DNA of 64,000 bases from an uncultured Amnibacterium sp. (GTDB taxonomy: Bacteria > Actinomycetota > Actinomycetes > Actinomycetales > Microbacteriaceae), in NCBI RefSeq assembly GCF_964250715.1, contig NZ_CAXUGX010000003.1, forward strand, positions 116,368 through 180,367, written 5' to 3'. Below the pieces are notes generated by a model. The model did not search any database. It had not been told where the DNA came from and worked only from the letters and a program-made list of their open reading frames with translations. Positions within the stretch are counted from its first letter, which is position 1; each line of letters opens with the position of its first letter. Of this stretch, positions 39,052 to 57,516 are shown piece by piece. The position numbers were made by a program, and so were the translations under genes.

Positions 39052-39219
39052 TGAGACGGCGGGAACGGCCTTCGCGCAGGTGAACCGCGGCGATCGCCTA
39101 CGAGGGGAGCTTCCAGGTGACGAGAGTACCGAGTCGTATGCTGAGAAAGGTCGTCGAGCGAACGAGACACGCGGGCGGTGTCCGAGCGCCCCGGGCGCAC
39201 CCCTGAAGAGGACGAACTT

Positions 39220-40380
39220 GTGAAAGCACCCGACTTCACCCTGACCGCCGGCCCGACGATGGCCGCCGAGCGCACATTGCACGCGCTCGGCTCGCAGATC
39301 GTCCATCATCTCGATCCGAGCTTCATCGAGACCTTCCGCCGCACCACCGAGAAGGCGGCGGCGTTCTTCCACACGGGGAACGACATGCTCCTCCTGCAGG
39401 GTGAGGGCATCCTGGCGCTGGAGGGGGCGGCGCGGTCCCTCACTCGTCCGGGGATGCATGTGCTCAACCTGGTGCAGGGTGTCTACGGCAAGGGCATGGG
39501 GCAGTGGCTCGCGAGCTACGGCACGGTGCTGCACGAGATCGAGGTCGCGTACAACGAGGCCGTCGACCCGGCCGATGTGGATGAGTACCTCACCGCGCAT
39601 CCGGAGATCGAGCTCGTGACGATCGTGCACTCCGAGACGCCCTCGGGGACGATCTCGGACTGCTCCAGGATCGGTCCGATCGCCCACAGTCACGGTGCGC
39701 TGACCCTGGTCGATGCACTCTCGTCGATCGGCGGGGTGGAGTTCGAACCGGATCAGTGGCAACTCGACGTGTGCGTCTCCGGCGGCCAGAAGTGCCTGGG
39801 CGGCCCCGTCGGCGTCGCGATGGTGTCGGTCAGTCCCGCCGCCTGGGAGCGGATGCTGGCCAATGAGCATGCGCCGCGCTACTCCTACATCTCACTGATC
39901 GACTGGAAGATCGGATGGCTGGAGAACGGCACGTTCCCGTTCACCCCGTCGGTCACGGATGTCGTCGGTCTCGAGGCAGCGCTCGATGCGATTCTCGAGG
40001 AGGGCGTCGAGAACTCGATCGCCCGTCATGCGAAGGCCGCGGCGGTCACGCGCGCCGGCGTCCGCTCCATGGGCCTGCAACTGTGGCCGGTGTCCGAGGC
40101 GATCTCGGGCAACCCGATCACCGCGGTCCGGGTTCCGGACGGGATCGTGCACACGGATCTGAGCGCGCACATCCGAGAGCGGTACAGCGTGATGCTCTCC
40201 ACCGGCCAGAGCGCCGGGAACCTGATCCACCTCGCGCACATGGGTCCCACGGCGACCGGTATGCACCAGATCATCGGACTCGCCGCCCTCGGCGGAGGGC
40301 TCATCGACCTCGGCGCGGACGTCGACCTCGGGGCGGGGATCGAAGCGGCCATGCGTGTGCTCGGTGGCGCTGCGTCATGA
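39220..40380 (+). CDS. class-V (AGXT-type) aminotransferase; by context pyridoxamine-pyruvate aminotransferase-like, copy 1
   Basis: 386 aa from GTG 39220. FTLTAGP, LNLVQGVYGKGMG, HSETPSGT, PLP-lysine block SGGQKCLGGP, FPFTPSV, AHMGPTA. These blocks match my recollection of Mesorhizobium loti PPAT. Confidence 0.8.
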   Translation: MKAPDFTLTAGPTMAAERTLHALGSQIVHHLDPSFIETFRRTTEKAAAFFHTGNDMLLLQGEGILALEGAARSLTRPGMHVLNLVQGVYGKGMGQWLASYGTVLHEIEVAYNEAVDPADVDEYLTAHPEIELVTIVHSETPSGTISDCSRIGPIAHSHGALTLVDALSSIGGVEFEPDQWQLDVCVSGGQKCLGGPVGVAMVSVSPAAWERMLANEHAPRYSYISLIDWKIGWLENGTFPFTPSVTDVVGLEAALDAILEEGVENSIARHAKAAAVTRAGVRSMGLQLWPVSEAISGNPITAVRVPDGIVHTDLSAHIRERYSVMLSTGQSAGNLIHLAHMGPTATGMHQIIGLAALGGGLIDLGADVDLGAGIEAAMRVLGGAAS

Positions 40381-47220: not shown

Positions 47221-47949
47221 TCAGTTGCGGGTATGGCCGCCATCGACCACGAGGGTCTGTCCGGTGATCCAGCCGGCTTTCTCCGAGGCGAGGAAGGCGA
47301 CGGCGGGAGCGATGTCCGCCGGCACGCCCCTGCGGTCGAAAGCCTGGGCAGGCAGCACATAGGCGAACCCTTCGTTGTGGGGGCTCGCGAGCACGCCCTC
47401 GGTCTCGGTCAGCCCCGGGGCGACGGCGTTGATGGTGATGCCGTCCTTGCCGATCTCACCGGCGAGCGCGCGGACGAAGCCGATGGACCCACCCTTGGTC
47501 GCGACGTAGTGCGCGAGGTTGGGCGTGCCCGCCACGAAGGTGTTCGAGGCGATGTTGACGATGCGGCCGTACCCCGCCGCGGCCATCACCGGAATGATCG
47601 ACTTCGTCATGAGGAACATGCCGTCGAGGTTCACCGACATGACCCGGCGCCACTCGGCGAAATCCAGCTCGGGCCACGGCACGAAGGGAACCAGCGCCGC
47701 GTTGTTCACGAGGATGTCGATGCGGCCCAACTCGTCGACGACCTCCGCGGCGAAGGCGGCGACCTGCTCGGGGTCGCTGACGTCGAGCTTCTTCGCGACG
47801 CCGCCGATCTCTGCAGCGACCGTGGTCGCGCCGTCGAGGTTGATGTCGGCCACGACCACTGTGCAGCCGTCCGACGCGAGTTCCTTGGCGATCGCGGCAC
47901 CGATGCCCTGTGCTGCTCCGGTGACGACGGCGACGCGCTGCTCAGTCAT
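47221..47949 (-). CDS. classical SDR, pyridoxal 4-dehydrogenase-like by context
   Basis: 242 aa. VVTGAAQGIG, NNAA, YVATK. Confidence 0.8.
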   Translation of the reverse strand: MTEQRVAVVTGAAQGIGAAIAKELASDGCTVVVADINLDGATTVAAEIGGVAKKLDVSDPEQVAAFAAEVVDELGRIDILVNNAALVPFVPWPELDFAEWRRVMSVNLDGMFLMTKSIIPVMAAAGYGRIVNIASNTFVAGTPNLAHYVATKGGSIGFVRALAGEIGKDGITINAVAPGLTETEGVLASPHNEGFAYVLPAQAFDRRGVPADIAPAVAFLASEKAGWITGQTLVVDGGHTRN

Positions 47950-48881: not shown

Positions 48882-48932
48882 GACCTCGGCCGGTGGCGCC
48901 CAGCCCGTCTTCACACGACTGAAACAGAGCGG

Positions 48933-49409
48933 TCACGGAAGCGGTGTGGGTGGGGGCGTGGCCAGTCGCCGGCCGTCCTCGAAGCGCGCCTCACCGGAGT
49001 AGAGCTCCCAGACGTAGCAATGGTCGAGCATCGGCGTCGTGTCGAAGTCGCCGATGCAGGTGGCGTCCTGGTACCTGGGCGTGCCGTGCAGGTCGTAGTA
49101 CACGCGACAGAGGACCTTCCAGGTGCCCCCCTTGGCGACGGCGGGGTCGTTGAAGAGATGTTCGGAGGGGGTCCAGCAGGCGGTCGACCGGACCGTCCCT
49201 CCGCGGAGTTTCAGCGCCTTCGGTGCCACGTTCGAGAGCTGCACGAACGCGGCGGTGTCCAGCGGGACGACTGCCACGTTGGTGGCCATCGGCATCGGCG
49301 AGCCGGCTGGTGTCGAGCTGGCCGACGGCGGATTCGTTGTCTGGCGGGCACATCCGGCGAGCACGAGCAGCATGATCAGGCAGGTGGCGAACCGGGACCG
49401 GGCTCGCAT
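48933..49409 (-). CDS. secreted Cys-containing lipoprotein of unknown function
   Basis: 158 aa from MRARSRFATCLIMLLVLAGCA (lipobox LAGC). Pro/Ser linker then a ~110-aa domain with 4 Cys. Confidence 0.6.
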   Translation of the reverse strand: MRARSRFATCLIMLLVLAGCARQTTNPPSASSTPAGSPMPMATNVAVVPLDTAAFVQLSNVAPKALKLRGGTVRSTACWTPSEHLFNDPAVAKGGTWKVLCRVYYDLHGTPRYQDATCIGDFDTTPMLDHCYVWELYSGEARFEDGRRLATPPPTPLP

Positions 49410-49474
49410 CACCAGGGTCACCCGTTCATTAAGCGGTCCGGGCGTGAAGGTTACGTTTCGACCCTGTAAAAACC

Positions 49475-49542
49475 CGTTCTCATGCGTTGACCGGCGTCTC
49501 GTCGTTCTCATAGTGTCAGCAACCGTTGACACATCGTGAGAA
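49475..49542. promoter_or_regulatory. repeated half-sites and a 38-bp palindrome upstream of the BMP transporter operon (candidate operator)
   Basis: CGTTCTCAT and CGTTGAC each occur twice. TTCTCA-ta-GTGTCA-gcaaccgt-TGACAC-atcg-TGAGAA spans 49505-49542. Lies between the divergent starts 49409(-) and 49593(+). Confidence 0.45.
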
Positions 49543-49592
49543 TCGGTGGCATCCCGCCAGACCGGATCACCGACCGAGAGGAACGCTTTCTC

Positions 49593-50681
49593 ATGCACAG
49601 CCCCACCTCGTTCGCCAGGCGATCGTTCAGTACCAGACGCGCGGTACCCCTGTTCACGGCGATCGCGCTTGCGGCCGTCCTCACCGGATGCGCGGGCCGC
49701 GGCACCGCCCCGGCCAACCCCTCCGCGAAGACGGATTTCACGACCGTCACGATCGTCACCCCTGCAACCGAGTCCGACCACGGTTGGAACCAGATGGGGC
49801 TCGCGGGAGCGAAGGCGGCCGCCGCGGCCACCTCGATGAAGCTCGCAAGCGACACGAACGTCGGATACGACAACACCCAGACGATCCTCACGCAGGCCGC
49901 TCAGAAGTCCGGCGTCGGCTTCGTCATCGCCCATGCCAGCGGATTCGGCCAGGCCGCGGCATCGGCGAACGCCAAGACGGGCGTGCCGTTCCTCATCACC
50001 GACGTGCCGACCGCACAGGTGAAGAACAAGATCGGCGTCATCACGTTCAGTGCGCAGCAGGGCGGGTACCTGGCCGGCATCGCCGCAGCGAAGACGACGA
50101 AGACGAACAAGCTCGGGATCGCCATCTCGGCCGACGATGTCAACTGGTTCACGATGTCCGGCGGCTTCATCGCCGGCGCGAAGAGCGTGAACCCCTCAAT
50201 CAAGGTCAATGTCGCCTACATCGGCGCAGCCTCCTACGACGACTCGGCCGGCGGCAAGAAGGTCGTCCAGCAGCTCATCGCCGCGGGTGACGACGTGATC
50301 TTCGGCATGGGCGACGGCGCCACGGTCGGCTACGTCGCAGCAGTCGACGAGGCCAACCAGGCCGGTAACAAGGTGAAGTACATCGCCGACATCGGTGATG
50401 TCTCCGATCTCGTGACCAACCCCGACGAGGTGCTGACCTCGGTGCTGTGGATCTTCGACGGCGCGTACACGCAGGCGATCAAGGACATCAAGGCCGGTTC
50501 GTTCGCCAGGGCGCCCTACGACCTCAATCTGAAGAATGGTGGCATCAAGCTCCAGAAGACCGCCGACATGACCGCGGACATCACGGCTGCGACCACCAAG
50601 GCGCAAGCCGGTATCGAGGACGGCAGTATCGCGGTGCCGGACACCACCACGAAGAAACAGTTGACGGCGCTGCTCAACTGA
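49593..50681 (+). CDS. BMP/PnrA-family ABC substrate-binding lipoprotein
   Basis: 362 aa from MHSPTSFARR... Lipobox LTGCAG. Bmp-family blocks (SDHGWNQ, GFGQAA, FGMGDGATVGY). Confidence 0.8.
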   Translation: MHSPTSFARRSFSTRRAVPLFTAIALAAVLTGCAGRGTAPANPSAKTDFTTVTIVTPATESDHGWNQMGLAGAKAAAAATSMKLASDTNVGYDNTQTILTQAAQKSGVGFVIAHASGFGQAAASANAKTGVPFLITDVPTAQVKNKIGVITFSAQQGGYLAGIAAAKTTKTNKLGIAISADDVNWFTMSGGFIAGAKSVNPSIKVNVAYIGAASYDDSAGGKKVVQQLIAAGDDVIFGMGDGATVGYVAAVDEANQAGNKVKYIADIGDVSDLVTNPDEVLTSVLWIFDGAYTQAIKDIKAGSFARAPYDLNLKNGGIKLQKTADMTADITAATTKAQAGIEDGSIAVPDTTTKKQLTALLN

Positions 50682-50792
50682 CTCGAGCGGAGCAGGGGGA
50701 GGCCGGGCGGCCCGAGTCAGACTCTCGCCCGTTCTCCCCACTGCACCGGTCACGAACTGCACCGACCACGAATCGAAGGGCCGGACACCGCG

Positions 50793-52398
<1,606 letters not shown>

Positions 52399-52412
<14 letters not shown>

Positions 52413-53598
52413 GACCCCGACCGAGAGCACGGACGGACTCACCAGCGACATCACGCCGCTCGACGACGACGCGGAACTGGTGACCACCCAGAAGTCGTCC
52501 CCCCGCAGGCGTGCCTTCGACATCGTCGTGCGCTCCATCGTCCCGATCGTGCTCGCTTTGATCGTGGCCGCCCTGATCCTGCTCGCCCTCGGCAAGAATC
52601 CGCTTCAGTTCTACGGCGCCGTCATCGAGAACGGGCTCATGGGCCAGAACTGGCAGAACAGCCTCGTCATGATGACGCCGCTGCTGCTCATCGCGATCGG
52701 CCTGATCGTGGTGTTCCGAGGCCAGCTGTGGAACCTCGGGTACGACGGGCAGTTCCTGCTGAGCGGTGTCGTCGTCGCCGGTCTCGCCCCGCAGCTCATC
52801 GGCGCGACATCCCCCGGCGTCGCCTATCTCGTGCTGACGATCGCCGCGATCGCCATCGCCGCCGCGTGGACTCTCATCCCCGCGTGGCTCAAAGCCTATT
52901 TCGGGACCAACGAGATCATCACGACGATCGTGATGTCGACGATCGGCGTGGGACTCACCAACATCCTGATCGAGTACGTCTTTCAGAACCCGGAGGTCCG
53001 CACACCCCAGACCAGGGCCATCGATCCGGGGGACCTCCTGCCCTACATCCCGGGTACGCAGGTGACCATCGGCTTCCTCGTGGCGATCGTGGTCGCCGTC
53101 GCGTTCCAATTCGTGCTCAGCCGCACCTCGTTCGGCTTGCGTCTCGACGTCTTCGGATCGAGTGCGAAGGCCGCCCGTCACGTGGGGATCAACTCGCGCA
53201 CCATGACGATCCTGCTGTTCCTGATCAGTGGCGGCTTGATCGGTCTGGCGGCGGCGATGGACATCTTCGGCCAGTGGGGCTACATGCGCACCAACTGGAA
53301 CCCTTCCTACGGCAACGCGATTCTGCCGTTCGTCTTCCTCGCCCGGCTGAGCCCGGTTGGATCGATCCCGTTCATCGCCTTCTACTCGGTGTTCGCGACC
53401 GGCGGCACCATCGCCGCGCAGGAGTCGAACGTGTCCGTGAACTTTCTGCAGATCGTCGTCGCGCTCATCCTCGTGTTCATGACCGTGACGGAATACATCG
53501 GGACCAAGCGCGACCTCGGCCAGAGCTACCTGCCCGACGAGCTGAAGGGCGCGATCCGCAGACCCCTCAGCGCCCTCACAGGAAGAGTGCGCCCGTGA
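52399..53598 (+). CDS. ABC permease (NupB/RbsC type)
   Basis: About 400 aa with a hydrophilic N-tail then 9-10 TM. Start ATG 52399 or GTG 52393. Overlaps the ATPase end. Confidence 0.8.
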
Positions 53599-54527
53599 CC
53601 GACCTCATGACGCCCACGTTCATCGCGGCATTCATCGTCGCCTGCCTCGCGGGCGCGATTCCCCTCATGCTGGCGTCCATCGGAGAGACGGTGGGTGAGC
53701 AGTCGGGCGTGCTGAACCTCGGCATCGAGGGCGTCATGCTCATGGGCGGGTACTTCGGGTACGTCGTCGCACTCGGCACACATTCCACCTGGCTCGGGAT
53801 GCTCGGAGGCCTGGTCGCCGGCGCCGTCACCTCGCTCGTGCTGCTGATCCTGAATGTCTGGTTCGGGCTGAACCAGATCGTGGTCGGTATCGCGATCACC
53901 GCCGCGGGCGGTGGAATCACAACCGTTCTCTACGACCAGCTCTATGCGCAGACCGCGCCGCGCGTCGTGACCGACAACTGGACGATCCCGGTGCTGTCGG
54001 ACATTCCGGTGGTCGGGCACTCGCTCTTCAGTCAGCCCGCGATGTTCTGGGTATCGCTCGTGATCGCGGTCATCGTGGCGTGGTTCCTGATCAGAACCAA
54101 TTGGGGCCTCAGCATCAGAGCCGCCGGGCAGAAGCCGTCGTCACTCGACGCCGCCGGTGGCAGCGTGATGCGAACCCGTTCGCAGGCGGTGCTGCTGGGG
54201 GGTGTGCTCTCCGGTCTCGGCGGTGCATACCTCTCCGTGCTCGCGACCAGCGCGTTCACGCCCTTCATGACGAACGGGCTCGGCTACATCGCGATCGTGG
54301 TGACGATGCTCTCGCGCGGCAAGATCCTGCGGGTCGTCATCGTGTCCCTGCTCTACGGCGTGACGATCGCGGTCGGGACCGTCCTGCAGCTGACCAGCCT
54401 GAACGTCTCGACGGACCTGATCACGATGCTGCCGTACATCGTGGTCATGATCGTGCTGCTGATCTTCGGCCGGGACGTCAACAACTCGCCCGTTCTCGGT
54501 GCGCCGTACACCCGCGGCGCGCGCTGA
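53595..54527 (+). CDS. ABC permease (NupC/RbsC type)
   Basis: 310 aa. GTG 53595 overlaps the previous TGA (GTGA). Multi-TM. Confidence 0.8.
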   Translation: MTDLMTPTFIAAFIVACLAGAIPLMLASIGETVGEQSGVLNLGIEGVMLMGGYFGYVVALGTHSTWLGMLGGLVAGAVTSLVLLILNVWFGLNQIVVGIAITAAGGGITTVLYDQLYAQTAPRVVTDNWTIPVLSDIPVVGHSLFSQPAMFWVSLVIAVIVAWFLIRTNWGLSIRAAGQKPSSLDAAGGSVMRTRSQAVLLGGVLSGLGGAYLSVLATSAFTPFMTNGLGYIAIVVTMLSRGKILRVVIVSLLYGVTIAVGTVLQLTSLNVSTDLITMLPYIVVMIVLLIFGRDVNNSPVLGAPYTRGAR

Positions 54528-54578
54528 CGCCGCAGTTCGTTTCACCACAGCCTCCGCGCACGACAGAGAGGATCGACG

Positions 54579-55736
54579 TTGGTCCGGTTGGATTTCACCC
54601 TCGCCGCGGGGCCGACAGTCGCCTCCCCGCGCACGCTTGCGGCGCTCGGGATGCCGATCACCTACCACTACGACCCCGACTTTCTCGCGCTGTTCCGGCG
54701 GACCGAGCGCAAGGTCGCCGAGCTGTTCCGCACGAAGAACGACGTCGTGCTCATGCAGGGCGAGGCCATCGTCGGTCTCGAGGGCGCTGCGCGTTCCCTG
54801 GTGCGGCCCGGCATGCACGTGCTCAATCTCGTGCAGGGCGTGTTCGGGAAAGGCATGGGGTACTGGCTCACCGATTTCGGCGCCGTGCTCCACGAGATCC
54901 AGGTTCCGTACAACGAGGCGGTCGATCCGGAAGCGGTGGAGCAGTACCTCGATGCGCACCCCGAGGTGGAGCTGGTCACCCTGGTCGCGTCGGAGACCCC
55001 GTCGGGAACCGTGACCGACATCGCGCGGATCGGACCGATCTGTCGATCCCGTGGTGTCCTGACCCTCGTGGACACCGTCTCCGGAGTCGGCGGGATGGAG
55101 TTCTTGACGGACGACTGGGGTCTCGACGTCTGCGTCGCCGGCGCCCAGAAGTGCCTCGGGGGCCCTCCCGGCGTCGCCCTCGTGACCGTGAGCCCAGCTG
55201 CGTGGGATTCGATGCTCGCGAATGATCATGCGCCGCGGTCTTCCTATCTTTCGCTCATCGACTGGAAGACGAAGTGGCTCGAGGGTGGCGCCTTCCCGTA
55301 CACGCCCTCGGTCTCGGACATGCACGGCCTCGAGGCATGCCTCGACGAGATCCTGGAGGAAGGGGTGGATGCGTCGATCGCGCGTCACTTCGCCTCGGCC
55401 GAGGTCGCCCGCGCAGGTGTCCGGGCCATGGGCCTCGAGCTGTGGCCGGTCAGCGACGACATCGCCGCCTCGTGCGTGACCAGCGTGCGCCTGCCCGACG
55501 CCGTCGACCACATCGCGGTCCGTACGCACGTGCGCGAACGCTACGGTGTGATGCTGTCGAGTGGTCAGGGCGCCGGCAACCTCATTAGGGTCGCTCACAT
55601 GGGTCCGACGGCCAGCGGTCTCCATCCCGTGGTCGGCGTTGCTGCGCTCGGGCGGAGCCTCGTTGATCTCGGGCAGCACGTGAAGGTCGGCGACGGGGTC
55701 GAGGCGGCGCTCGCTTTGCTCAGTAACCAGCAGTGA
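54579..55736 (+). CDS. class-V aminotransferase, paralog of 39220..40380 (pyridoxamine-pyruvate aminotransferase-like, copy 2)
   Basis: 385 aa. Collinear with copy 1 over the full length (roughly 60% identical by eye). PLP-lysine block AGAQKCLGGP. Confidence 0.8.
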   Translation: MVRLDFTLAAGPTVASPRTLAALGMPITYHYDPDFLALFRRTERKVAELFRTKNDVVLMQGEAIVGLEGAARSLVRPGMHVLNLVQGVFGKGMGYWLTDFGAVLHEIQVPYNEAVDPEAVEQYLDAHPEVELVTLVASETPSGTVTDIARIGPICRSRGVLTLVDTVSGVGGMEFLTDDWGLDVCVAGAQKCLGGPPGVALVTVSPAAWDSMLANDHAPRSSYLSLIDWKTKWLEGGAFPYTPSVSDMHGLEACLDEILEEGVDASIARHFASAEVARAGVRAMGLELWPVSDDIAASCVTSVRLPDAVDHIAVRTHVRERYGVMLSSGQGAGNLIRVAHMGPTASGLHPVVGVAALGRSLVDLGQHVKVGDGVEAALALLSNQQ

Positions 55737-55784
55737 AGAGCGGTGGCGTACGCGCTCGGGTTTTGACGGTGACCGGTCAGAGAG

Positions 55785-56549
55785 GTGTCGAGGATGGCCT
55801 CTCAGCGGACTAAGGGGGTCGACAGCGCGCGTCGCGTGCTCGAGATCCTGCTGCAATTCAGCGAGAGCAAACCCGAGCTGACGGTGGACGAGATCCTCGA
55901 GATGCACGGCATCTCGTTGCCGAGTGCCTATCGCTATCTGTCACTGCTGCGCGAGATGTACCTCATCGAGGAGCGGGGCAAGGGTTCCTACGTGCTGTCG
56001 CCGGAGATCCTGCAGCTGGCCCAGGCCGCGGAACGTACGCTCGACTACCGCGTGGAGGCCCAGCCCGTACTCGACAGGCTCGCGGCATCGACCGGCGAGA
56101 CCGCCCTCTACCTGCGCCAGCTCAACGATGCGGCGGTGTGCCTGACGATCTCCGAATCAGATCACGCCATCAGCATCTCCTTCCGGCCGGGTCACGTGAT
56201 GCCGCTCCACGCCGGTGCCGGAGCGAAGGTGCTGCTCGCAGGGTTCACCGACGCGCGGCGCGCGCAATATCTCAATCGGCTCACGCCTCCGCTCGACCCC
56301 GCCGTGCGGGAGCGGCTGGACAAGGACCTCGACACGCTTCGCGATACCCATTTCTCGATCAGCGAGGGCGAGGTCGACGAGGGTCTGTGGGCGTGCGCTG
56401 CCCCGGTCCACGCGCGGGGCCAGCTGGTCGGTGCAGTCTCGGTGGTCGCGCCCGCGTACCGCGTCGACGAGGACGCGCGCGCCAGCATCGGCGTTGCCGT
56501 TCGGGCTGAGGCGAAAGAACTCGAGGCGGTGCTGGCAGAGGCGCGCTGA
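55785..56549 (+). CDS. IclR-family transcriptional regulator
   Basis: 254 aa. N-terminal wHTH (SARRVLEILLQFSE..LTVDEILEMHGISLPSAYRYLSLL) plus IclR effector domain. Confidence 0.85.
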   Translation: MSRMASQRTKGVDSARRVLEILLQFSESKPELTVDEILEMHGISLPSAYRYLSLLREMYLIEERGKGSYVLSPEILQLAQAAERTLDYRVEAQPVLDRLAASTGETALYLRQLNDAAVCLTISESDHAISISFRPGHVMPLHAGAGAKVLLAGFTDARRAQYLNRLTPPLDPAVRERLDKDLDTLRDTHFSISEGEVDEGLWACAAPVHARGQLVGAVSVVAPAYRVDEDARASIGVAVRAEAKELEAVLAEAR

Positions 56550-56652
56550 GCATCTGCCAGTCCAAGGAACGACTCCGGACAGAACCGAGGAGTTCCAACC
56601 TCCGGCTCGGTGGCTGCGTGAGTGGTCCAGGCCCGACGGGCAGGCTGGGCCC

Positions 56653-57516
56653 ATGGCTGACATCCCCATCCCGACTCGCGCCGTCCTCACCCCGGAAGGG
56701 ACCGTGGGGGCAGGTGCCCGCCTTCCCGCGATCGGCCTCGGTACCTACGGTCTGCGCGGAGCCGCGGGTGTCGCCGCGGTCGGTACCGCCATCGACGCGG
56801 GCTTCCGGTTGCTGGACACCGCCTTCAACTACGACAACGAGGGCGCCGTCGGCCGCGCGATCATCGACTCGACGGTGCCTCGCGACGAGTTGATCTACTC
56901 GACCAAGCTGCCCGGTCGGTACCACGGATACGAGCTTGCGCTGCAGGCCGTCGAGGAGAGCCTGTTCCGGAGCGGGCTCGACCGCCTGGACCTCGTGCTC
57001 ATCCACTGGCCGAATCCGTCAGTGCGCAAGTACGTGGAGGCGTGGCGGGCACTCGTCGAGGCGCGCGAACGCGGACTCGTTCGCATGATCGGCGTCTCCA
57101 ACTTCCTGCCCGAGCACCTGGACCGCATCATCGGCGACAGCGGCGTCGTCCCGGTTCTGAACCAGATCGAGGTGCACCCGTACCACCCGCAGGACGAGGT
57201 GCGAGCGGCGAACGCGGAACGCGGCATCCTCACCGAGGGCTGGTCGCCGCTCGGCGCGAGCAGCGATCTGATCGGCCACGACATTGTCACCGGGATCGCG
57301 GAGGCGCACGGCACGTCGCCCGCGCTCGTGCTGCTGGCCTGGTCGATCGCCCTCGGGGTGATCCCGCTGCCGAAGTCTGCGACCGCGGCGCGTCAGGCAG
57401 CGAACCTCACCGCGTTCGATCTCGAACTCGGCGCCACCGACCTCGACCGCTTGCGCCGGCTCGCCGGTACCGACGGCCGGCGACACTCCGACCCGAGTGA
57501 GCACGAGGAGATGTAG
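56653..57516 (+). CDS. aldo-keto reductase (2,5-diketo-D-gluconate-reductase-like)
   Basis: 287 aa. AKR catalytic tetrad blocks LDTAFNYDNE (Asp/Tyr), STKLP (Lys), LVLIHWP (His). Confidence 0.85.
   Translation: MADIPIPTRAVLTPEGTVGAGARLPAIGLGTYGLRGAAGVAAVGTAIDAGFRLLDTAFNYDNEGAVGRAIIDSTVPRDELIYSTKLPGRYHGYELALQAVEESLFRSGLDRLDLVLIHWPNPSVRKYVEAWRALVEARERGLVRMIGVSNFLPEHLDRIIGDSGVVPVLNQIEVHPYHPQDEVRAANAERGILTEGWSPLGASSDLIGHDIVTGIAEAHGTSPALVLLAWSIALGVIPLPKSATAARQAANLTAFDLELGATDLDRLRRLAGTDGRRHSDPSEHEEM

Follow-up and report, generated by a model that had tools for sequence, protein, structure and literature searches.

The transporter described here, of the ATP-binding cassette (ABC) type, is coded in a 64,000-nt stretch of DNA from an uncultured Amnibacterium sp. 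of the family Microbacteriaceae (assembly GCF_964250715.1, contig NZ_CAXUGX010000003.1, positions 116,368 to 180,367 of the forward strand). This stretch is called the window, and positions below are counted from its first letter. The substrate-binding protein (SBP), the ATPase and the two permeases of the transporter probably form an importer of unphosphorylated B6 vitamers, that is pyridoxamine and probably also pyridoxine and pyridoxal. The transporter is a member of a family already predicted by the NCBIfam curators to import vitamin B6. The comparative evidence presented here considerably strengthens this prediction and extends it to salvage of the vitamin. The host genome is 2.88 Mb in 23 contigs, and the window DNA has high G+C content. 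Genes and sites of the locus are as follows.

48933..49409, minus strand: small lipoprotein of 158 aa (open reading frame with signal peptide, lipobox LAGC and four invariant Cys; no Pfam or NCBIfam match).
49487..49542, plus strand: promoter-like TTGAC at 49487-49491 and, after it, an imperfect palindrome, TTCTCATAGTGT (49505-49516) ... ACATCGTGAGAA (49531-49542); candidate IclR operator with confirmed repeats.
49593..50681, plus strand: lipoprotein SBP of Bmp/PnrA fold (PF02608; NF047927, 446 bits; AlphaFold2 model with Foldseek search; pocket signature).
50793..52412, plus strand: ABC ATPase with tandem domains (PF00005, two domains; NF047930, 782 bits).
52393..53598, plus strand: permease, "permease subunit 2" of NCBIfam (PF02653, BPD_transp_2; NF047929, 491 bits).
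53598..54527, plus strand: permease, nearest to "permease subunit 1" of NCBIfam (PF02653, BPD_transp_2; NF047928, 321 bits, under the cut-off).
54579..55736, plus strand: class-V aminotransferase, copy 2 of a gene like that of pyridoxamine-pyruvate aminotransferase (PPAT) (2Z9U, E 5e-107; 65% identity to copy 1; Lys197 equivalent present).
55785..56549, plus strand: IclR-family regulator (PF09339, HTH_IclR, 30 bits; PF01614, IclR_C, 80 bits).
56560..57516, plus strand: aldo-keto reductase (AKR) (PF00248; DkgA, 218 bits, under the cut-off of 425); outside the conserved module.

A first-pass annotation, made from the letters alone, had placed the SBP, tandem ATPase, two permeases, second PPAT, IclR and AKR genes in this order on the plus strand, and Pfam and NCBIfam searches found each of them there. 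Upstream of the transporter, the Pfam scan identified genes of B6 degradation pathway I, including a lactonase, a short-chain dehydrogenase/reductase (SDR), a GMC oxidase and lower-pathway genes. The SDR at 47221-47949 matches the pyridoxal 4-dehydrogenase of Mesorhizobium loti (3NDR, E 3e-77). The transporter had been said to lie directly beside the lactonase operon; the neighbourhood is as described, but the lipoprotein gene at 48933-49409 intervenes. That gene, left undescribed earlier, accounts for the start coordinate 48933 given to the locus. The SBP gene starts at ATG 49593, is preceded by a ribosome-binding site GAGAGGA and codes for a lipobox LTGC.

Four equivalog models of NCBIfam, NF047927 to NF047930, carry the name "putative B6 ABC transporter", one for each subunit. 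The SBP scored 446.2 bits against the NF047927 cut-off of 400 (profile positions 2-313 of 314), the ATPase 782.1 bits against 670 for NF047930, and the permease at 52393-53598 491.4 bits against 400 for NF047929. For the permease at 53598-54527, NF047928 was the best match by far, with the full profile covered (3-311 of 311). NCBI records use the name "putative B6 ABC transporter" for homologues in Gryllotalpicola, Rathayibacter, Schumannella, Ruicaihuangia and Leucobacter. The proposal of B6 import made in the first-pass annotation is a reasonable and supported prediction, B6 vitamers having the best support among possible substrates, while its novelty is not supported, as these models already bear the B6 name. 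The new points are modest but concrete: the binding pocket has a residue signature, the transporter is associated with loss of PdxS, an operator is conserved, and there is a lipoprotein partner not characterised before.

The connection of the transporter with B6 genes was followed in 200 genomes of the family plus the window's own (201 in all), and 20 kb was taken round each SBP orthologue. Orthologues with 44-73% identity were present in 13 of the 200 genomes; neither of the two genomes of the same genus had one. At eight of 11 readable 20-kb loci, the transporter adjoins lactonase, SDR, GMC and lower-pathway genes, with the gene order rearranged; two of these eight have a different order with the IclR gene immediately 5' of the SBP gene. 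No B6 gene is nearby at three of the 13 loci, and two of the 13 are on short contigs. In a scan across prokaryotes, with one genome per species and SBP identity of at least 33%, 56 loci were collected from Microbacteriaceae, Thermoleophilia/Solirubrobacterales, many Alphaproteobacteria (among them a Mesorhizobium, Azospirillum, Ancylobacter and Acetobacteraceae), Chloroflexota and one metagenome-assembled genome (MAG) of Acidobacteriota. When the count was restricted to loci of at least 18 kb, PPAT and/or 4-pyridoxolactonase genes were found at most 10 kb away in 32 of 38 loci of this clade, which spans four or more phyla, as compared to none of 16 outgroup Bmp loci (at most 34% identity). The NF047927 model matched only one other genome in a sample of 400 genomes of the phylum; it belongs to a different family, and there the transporter again adjoins 3HCDH, lactonase, PPAT and SDR genes. 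In loci of Microbacteriaceae and Azospirillum, a PPAT gene comes 30-72 nt after the last permease. Together with PPAT copy 2 and the IclR gene, the transporter makes up a conserved module linked to B6 catabolism.

As a separate observation, the transporter and B6 locus L063, from a record titled as a Bifidobacterium breve MAG, is near-identical to locus L040 (genome G575), with 51% GC. The SBPs of the two loci are sister rows in the tree, and the binning of the L063 contig may deserve a check.

The second PPAT-like gene is present as had been reported, and the identity of the two copies, estimated by eye at about 60%, is 65% over 377 residues (copy 2 at 54579-55736, copy 1 at 39178-40380). Copy 2 aligns with the M. 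loti enzyme 2Z9U over residues 6-381 (E 5e-107), and its QKC motif falls on NKC at chain position 196, with Lys conserved. This Lys, Lys197 of 2Z9U, is the Schiff-base residue. Copy 2 retains equivalents of Lys197, Asp171, Thr146, Glu68 and Arg345, and has Phe in place of Tyr95 and Gln in place of Arg336. In copy 1, His takes the place of Arg345, and Gln replaces Arg336 in both copies. The roles of these seven residues are taken as reported for the M. loti structure. Differences at the substrate site hint at a different keto-acid or amine specificity of the two copies. For both copies the NCBIfam PPAT model NF046070 is the best family, with BhcA next at 188 bits. Of the two, copy 2 seems to be the conservative orthologue and copy 1 a diverged paralogue, because the transporter-linked PPATs of other Actinomycetota are nearer to copy 2 than to copy 1, and in genomes G182 and G054 the sole PPAT within the examined 20-kb loci is the transporter-linked one. 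Copy 2 is probably co-transcribed with the transporter.

The first-pass annotation considered only catabolic uptake and missed a probable second role of the family in vitamin salvage. PdxS was undetected in 13 of the 201 family genomes. It is missing in six of 14 genomes with the transporter versus seven of 187 without it (odds ratio 19, p 5e-5 in a Fisher test that ignores phylogeny). The six genomes represent six genera. Four genera allowed a transporter-bearing, PdxS-less member to be set against PdxS-bearing congeners that have no transporter, and all four contrasts went in the same direction. In genomes G118, G003, G092 and G021, the transporter is present and neither lactonase nor PPAT was found anywhere in the genome; G003, G118 and G021 also have no PdxS. 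PdxJ was not found in any of these four genomes or in G000; of the six PdxS-less genomes with the transporter, that search covered G003, G118 and G021, the other three being G010, G042 and G182. The three PdxS-less genomes without B6 catabolic genes suggest a salvage role of the transporter. The tree of SBPs has stand-alone and B6-linked transporters intermixed; one B6-linked transporter of the Leucobacter group, for example, stands among three stand-alone ones. Therefore the same type of protein seems to serve both the breakdown of B6 and its acquisition as a vitamin. In PdxS-less genomes, two weak matches to the PdxH model were obtained.

Several further observations concern these genomes. 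The PdxS-less stand-alone genomes each have two strong ThiD/PdxK-family kinase genes (G003:C2:172325-173047, G118:C6:68231-68956); one strong gene of this family shares the contig with the transporter about 30 kb away, and the window's own genome has no strong one. The neighbours of stand-alone transporters are uninformative (AraA, a RelA_SpoT-domain protein, an esterase and an M48 peptidase). The RelA_SpoT-domain protein, of about 300 aa and of small alarmone synthetase type, is coded convergently to the last permease and is followed by the esterase (L026:12800-13696, L027:6304-7209). PdxS was also undetected in the near-complete genomes G010 (locus L032) and G182 (locus L025), which carry the B6 catabolic cluster together with the transporter; these would be B6 auxotrophs that also break down vitamin B6.

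The SBP matches PF02608 (Bmp) with 97 bits against a cut-off of 24. Its AlphaFold2 model (pLDDT 88) has the fold of type-I periplasmic binding proteins, with Foldseek E 1e-21 and TM 0.71-0.77 to 6YAB/6Y9U. The best Foldseek matches were S. pneumoniae PnrA, Lbp, BmpD, AtzT, a Brucella Bmp protein, TmpC and RfuA; a PDB search with the N-terminal part of the SBP alone gave no useful alignment. Type-I binding proteins usually contact the ligand at strand ends and loops. In the model, the mapped pocket positions are at strand ends and loops. They were mapped by HMMER alignment to S. pneumoniae PnrA and MAFFT alignment with canonical-looking paralogues. Nucleoside binders share, in BmpA numbering, the aromatic pair Phe27/Phe176, Phe151 and Val224-Asp225, and their ribose contacts are Asp98, Asp225 and Lys242 (PMC13325309). 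In the B6 clade, both aromatic residues of the pair are retained, Phe27 as Trp65 (Tyr in a few members) and Phe176 as Tyr215, and Asp98 is retained as Asp137. Phe151 is replaced by Met or Gln at 188, Asp225 by Ile267 and Lys242 by Trp286 (Phe in Chloroflexota). Two of the three ribose-binding residues, Asp225 and Lys242, are thus lost in the clade, and only the Asp98 equivalent is kept. This pattern is constant in every clade member of every phylum; outgroup Bmp proteins retain Lys at 286 and many of them Phe at 188. Conserved Asp residues in the pocket are D62, D137, D217, D241 and D269. Judged from these residues, the pocket would fit a small cationic or neutral heteroaromatic compound such as pyridoxamine, and a nucleoside, glycoside or anion less well.

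A substrate related to B6 that is none of the three free vitamers has to be considered: 4-pyridoxate, 4-pyridoxolactone, the plant compound pyridoxine-5'-beta-glucoside, pyridoxal 5'-phosphate (PLP), or an aminomethyl heterocycle resembling these, for example the thiamine pyrimidine 4-amino-5-aminomethyl-2-methylpyrimidine. Synteny ties the transporter to the pathway and not to a particular compound, Bmp-fold proteins normally take a heterocycle together with a sugar, and uptake of PLP would fit the genomes in which PdxS is missing, as just one of five has a clear PdxK/PdxY kinase. Against such a substrate, PPAT serves pyridoxamine alone and is in many loci the gene most tightly joined to the transporter operon; the Asp-rich pocket without the sugar-binding Lys and Asp would disfavour 4-pyridoxate, PLP and glycosides; neither a glycosidase nor a phosphatase is conserved in related loci; and the link with PdxS loss is specific to B6. 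A substrate of this kind is considered unlikely. An ordinary nucleoside or nucleobase importer of PnrA type, placed beside B6 genes by chance, is highly improbable: the Pfam match to Bmp/PnrA and the nearest solved structures, all nucleoside binders (S. pneumoniae PnrA, BmpD and TmpC), agree with it, but the B6 link recurs across phyla in varied gene orders and not in the outgroup, two of the three ribose-binding residues are replaced clade-wide, and the host genome encodes a separate, more canonical Bmp paralogue with 28% identity to the SBP.

Some results weigh against import of free B6 vitamers or against parts of the argument for it. The permease at 53598-54527 is under the NF047928 cut-off (321.1 vs 465 bits), and both PPAT copies are under the NF046070 cut-off of 600, with 419.7 bits for copy 2 and 408.8 bits for copy 1. 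The pocket mapping comes from sequence alignment. A full-text literature search returned no paper describing or testing a Bmp-type B6 transporter family, nor a locus-tag description of such a transporter in M. loti. The NCBI name says "putative" and may share the same basis in synteny, in which case it is not independent support. Besides the neglect of phylogeny in the PdxS test, two of the six PdxS-less genomes with the transporter are only 82% and 91% complete, and G092, with a stand-alone transporter, has PdxS. The PdxK/PdxY-type kinase model matched only one of five PdxS-less genomes, and matches of the ThiD/PdxK family in such genomes were ambiguous. As a side remark on annotation, the PGAP name of the permease at 53598-54527 would probably be generic, while its three partners exceed their cut-offs.

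For an importer of free B6 vitamers, the following sequence of events is proposed. The lipid-anchored SBP of Bmp fold would capture the vitamer by its pyridine ring, Trp65 on one side and Tyr215 on the other, in an acidic pocket without the ribose-binding Lys and Asp, and the permeases with the tandem ATPase would then take it up. PPAT copy 2, probably co-transcribed, would convert pyridoxamine to pyridoxal, which would feed the neighbouring pathway-I operons coding for the SDR pyridoxal dehydrogenase, lactonase, GMC oxidase and lower-pathway enzymes. As long as no B6-derived effector is bound, the IclR protein probably keeps the operon repressed from the palindrome that overlaps the promoter. 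Where related genomes have neither PdxS nor catabolic genes, the cofactor probably comes from salvage through this transporter. The conserved small lipoprotein beside the SBP gene is probably an accessory component in this scheme.

Repeats had been reported upstream of the SBP gene, and they are real. The layout 5' of this gene, shared among loci, is TTGAC, 17 nt, and then TTCTCATAnTGT ... ACAnTGTGAGAA. The window has it at 49487-49542, as do loci of Lysinimonas, Herbiconiux, Microbacterium and Protaetiibacter; all of these include the IclR gene, and three stand-alone Leucobacter loci without that gene lack the layout. The palindrome overlaps the -10 region of the promoter-like element, which fits a repressor site bound, as we infer, by IclR; the palindrome (49505-49542) is the probable operator of this regulator. 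The motif GTTCTCAT was not repeated upstream of other B6 operons in the window, and its count is within chance. The IclR gene is kept with the transporter in B6-linked Microbacteriaceae loci, either downstream of it or immediately 5' of the SBP gene.

The AKR gene had been counted with the module, and this did not hold, as no homologue was found in about 70 related loci. Its role as a pyridoxal dehydrogenase, a function that an AKR has in Microbacterium luteolum, is rejected on gene context: it is never syntenic, and the SDR at 47221-47949 fills that role. The protein resembles generic AKRs of 2,5-diketogluconate type; DkgA is its best NCBIfam match, and the best PDB matches are generic AKRs. 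The epimerase-like gene after the AKR gene was matched in only one related locus (L059). No RNA dataset was found to contain the transporter stretch. Two DNA runs of lichen metagenomes from one study contain 27% and 8% of the sampled words of positions 48900-56600 of the window.

The small lipoprotein coded at 48933-49409 is a candidate fifth component of the transporter. Its database relatives are all named "hypothetical protein" and have no Pfam domain. The AlphaFold2 model (pLDDT 86) has a confident core of one helix packed on a four-stranded sheet, and Foldseek gave no match at E < 0.1. The best VIA-align hits (Z 6.1) were NTF2/VirB8/cystatin-like chains, within the range of common arrangements; a shape search of the atlas reached TM 0.41, and a feature-based atlas search returned clusters of "hypothetical protein" only. 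The predicted complex of SBP and lipoprotein scored 0.27, as compared to the mark of 0.32, and speaks neither for nor against a contact. The lipoprotein may well be unrelated to the transporter, a neighbour conserved for another reason, although this is considered somewhat less than probable. It has neither a family, a function nor a clear fold match; it was not detected in the G182 and G054 loci, in two MAG loci or in loci outside Microbacteriaceae; and it is often transcribed divergently, so that it is not always in the transporter operon. On the other side, most Microbacteriaceae loci have a homologue (28-76% identity) within a few hundred bases of the SBP gene, pointing either the same way or away from it, and such homologues also stand beside stand-alone transporters at loci wholly without B6 catabolic genes. 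In their alignment 15 columns do not vary; these comprise four Cys and two Trp, and among others His84, Arg102, Arg112 and Asp115. A more specific proposal is tentative: that the protein is the first of a family, not described so far, of extracytoplasmic accessory proteins serving a vitamin importer in the Gram-positive Microbacteriaceae, maybe capturing or releasing vitamers for the SBP. It might free pyridoxal from Schiff bases or concentrate the vitamer at the cell surface and then hand it to the SBP. If this is true, the system has five components and not four.

Among known systems, the transporter is closest to the "putative B6 ABC transporter" of NCBIfam, with three of its subunits over the cut-offs and with gene order and B6-gene link in agreement; this label is itself a prediction. 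As far as seen, that annotation does not extend to a lipoprotein partner, to an IclR gene and operator, or to an association with missing PdxS. The nucleoside transporters with PnrA/TmpC, BmpA, BmpD and S. pneumoniae PnrA have in common with it the Pfam family, the fold, the lipoprotein nature of the SBP, a tandem ATPase with two permeases, and the aromatic pair flanking the ligand (PMC7093131, PMC13325309). Similarity of the SBPs is Foldseek E 1e-21 to 1e-18 and TM 0.7-0.8, with sequence identity of 20-27%; the difference lies in the replacement of Lys242 by Trp, Asp225 by Ile and Phe151 by Met or Gln in the B6 clade. RfuA (TP0298; 4IIL, E 3e-16) and AtzT (6PI5, E 3e-19) belong to the same fold family and bind heteroaromatic ligands other than nucleosides, a vitamin in the case of RfuA. 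Their ligands are different, their sequences are distant, and a link to B6 genes is not shown for them. The first-pass annotation expected a new substrate class for the Bmp family; with the riboflavin binder RfuA and the atrazine binder AtzT already in the fold family, the expectation has to be softened.

Compared to B6 degradation pathway I of M. loti, the window has a similar PPAT in copy 2 and a similar SDR; it differs in that PPAT is duplicated, one copy is joined to the transporter operon and the regulator is of the IclR family. The M. loti pathway reportedly uses a GntR-type regulator. In the Mesorhizobium locus L084, the transporter is also near a PPAT gene.

Bacterial uptake of unphosphorylated vitamin B6 is still poorly known. 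The systems described are the PLP-binding ABC system of Actinobacillus and the energy-coupling factor (ECF) transporters. P5PA of Actinobacillus is reported to take the active, phosphorylated form of B6, PLP (PMC8427247). The ECF systems HmpT/PdxU (PMC4860826) have no soluble SBP, unlike the transporter of the window. Both have the same role in vitamin acquisition and belong to unrelated protein families. With the conserved lipoprotein and the operator, two concrete and testable parts are added to the transporter system. The residue signature of the pocket separates the B6 clade from its nucleoside-binding relatives, which should improve annotation and gives targets for mutagenesis. The B6 ABC family is a well-supported and widespread candidate, and it appears to serve both the breakdown of vitamin B6 and its acquisition by auxotrophs.

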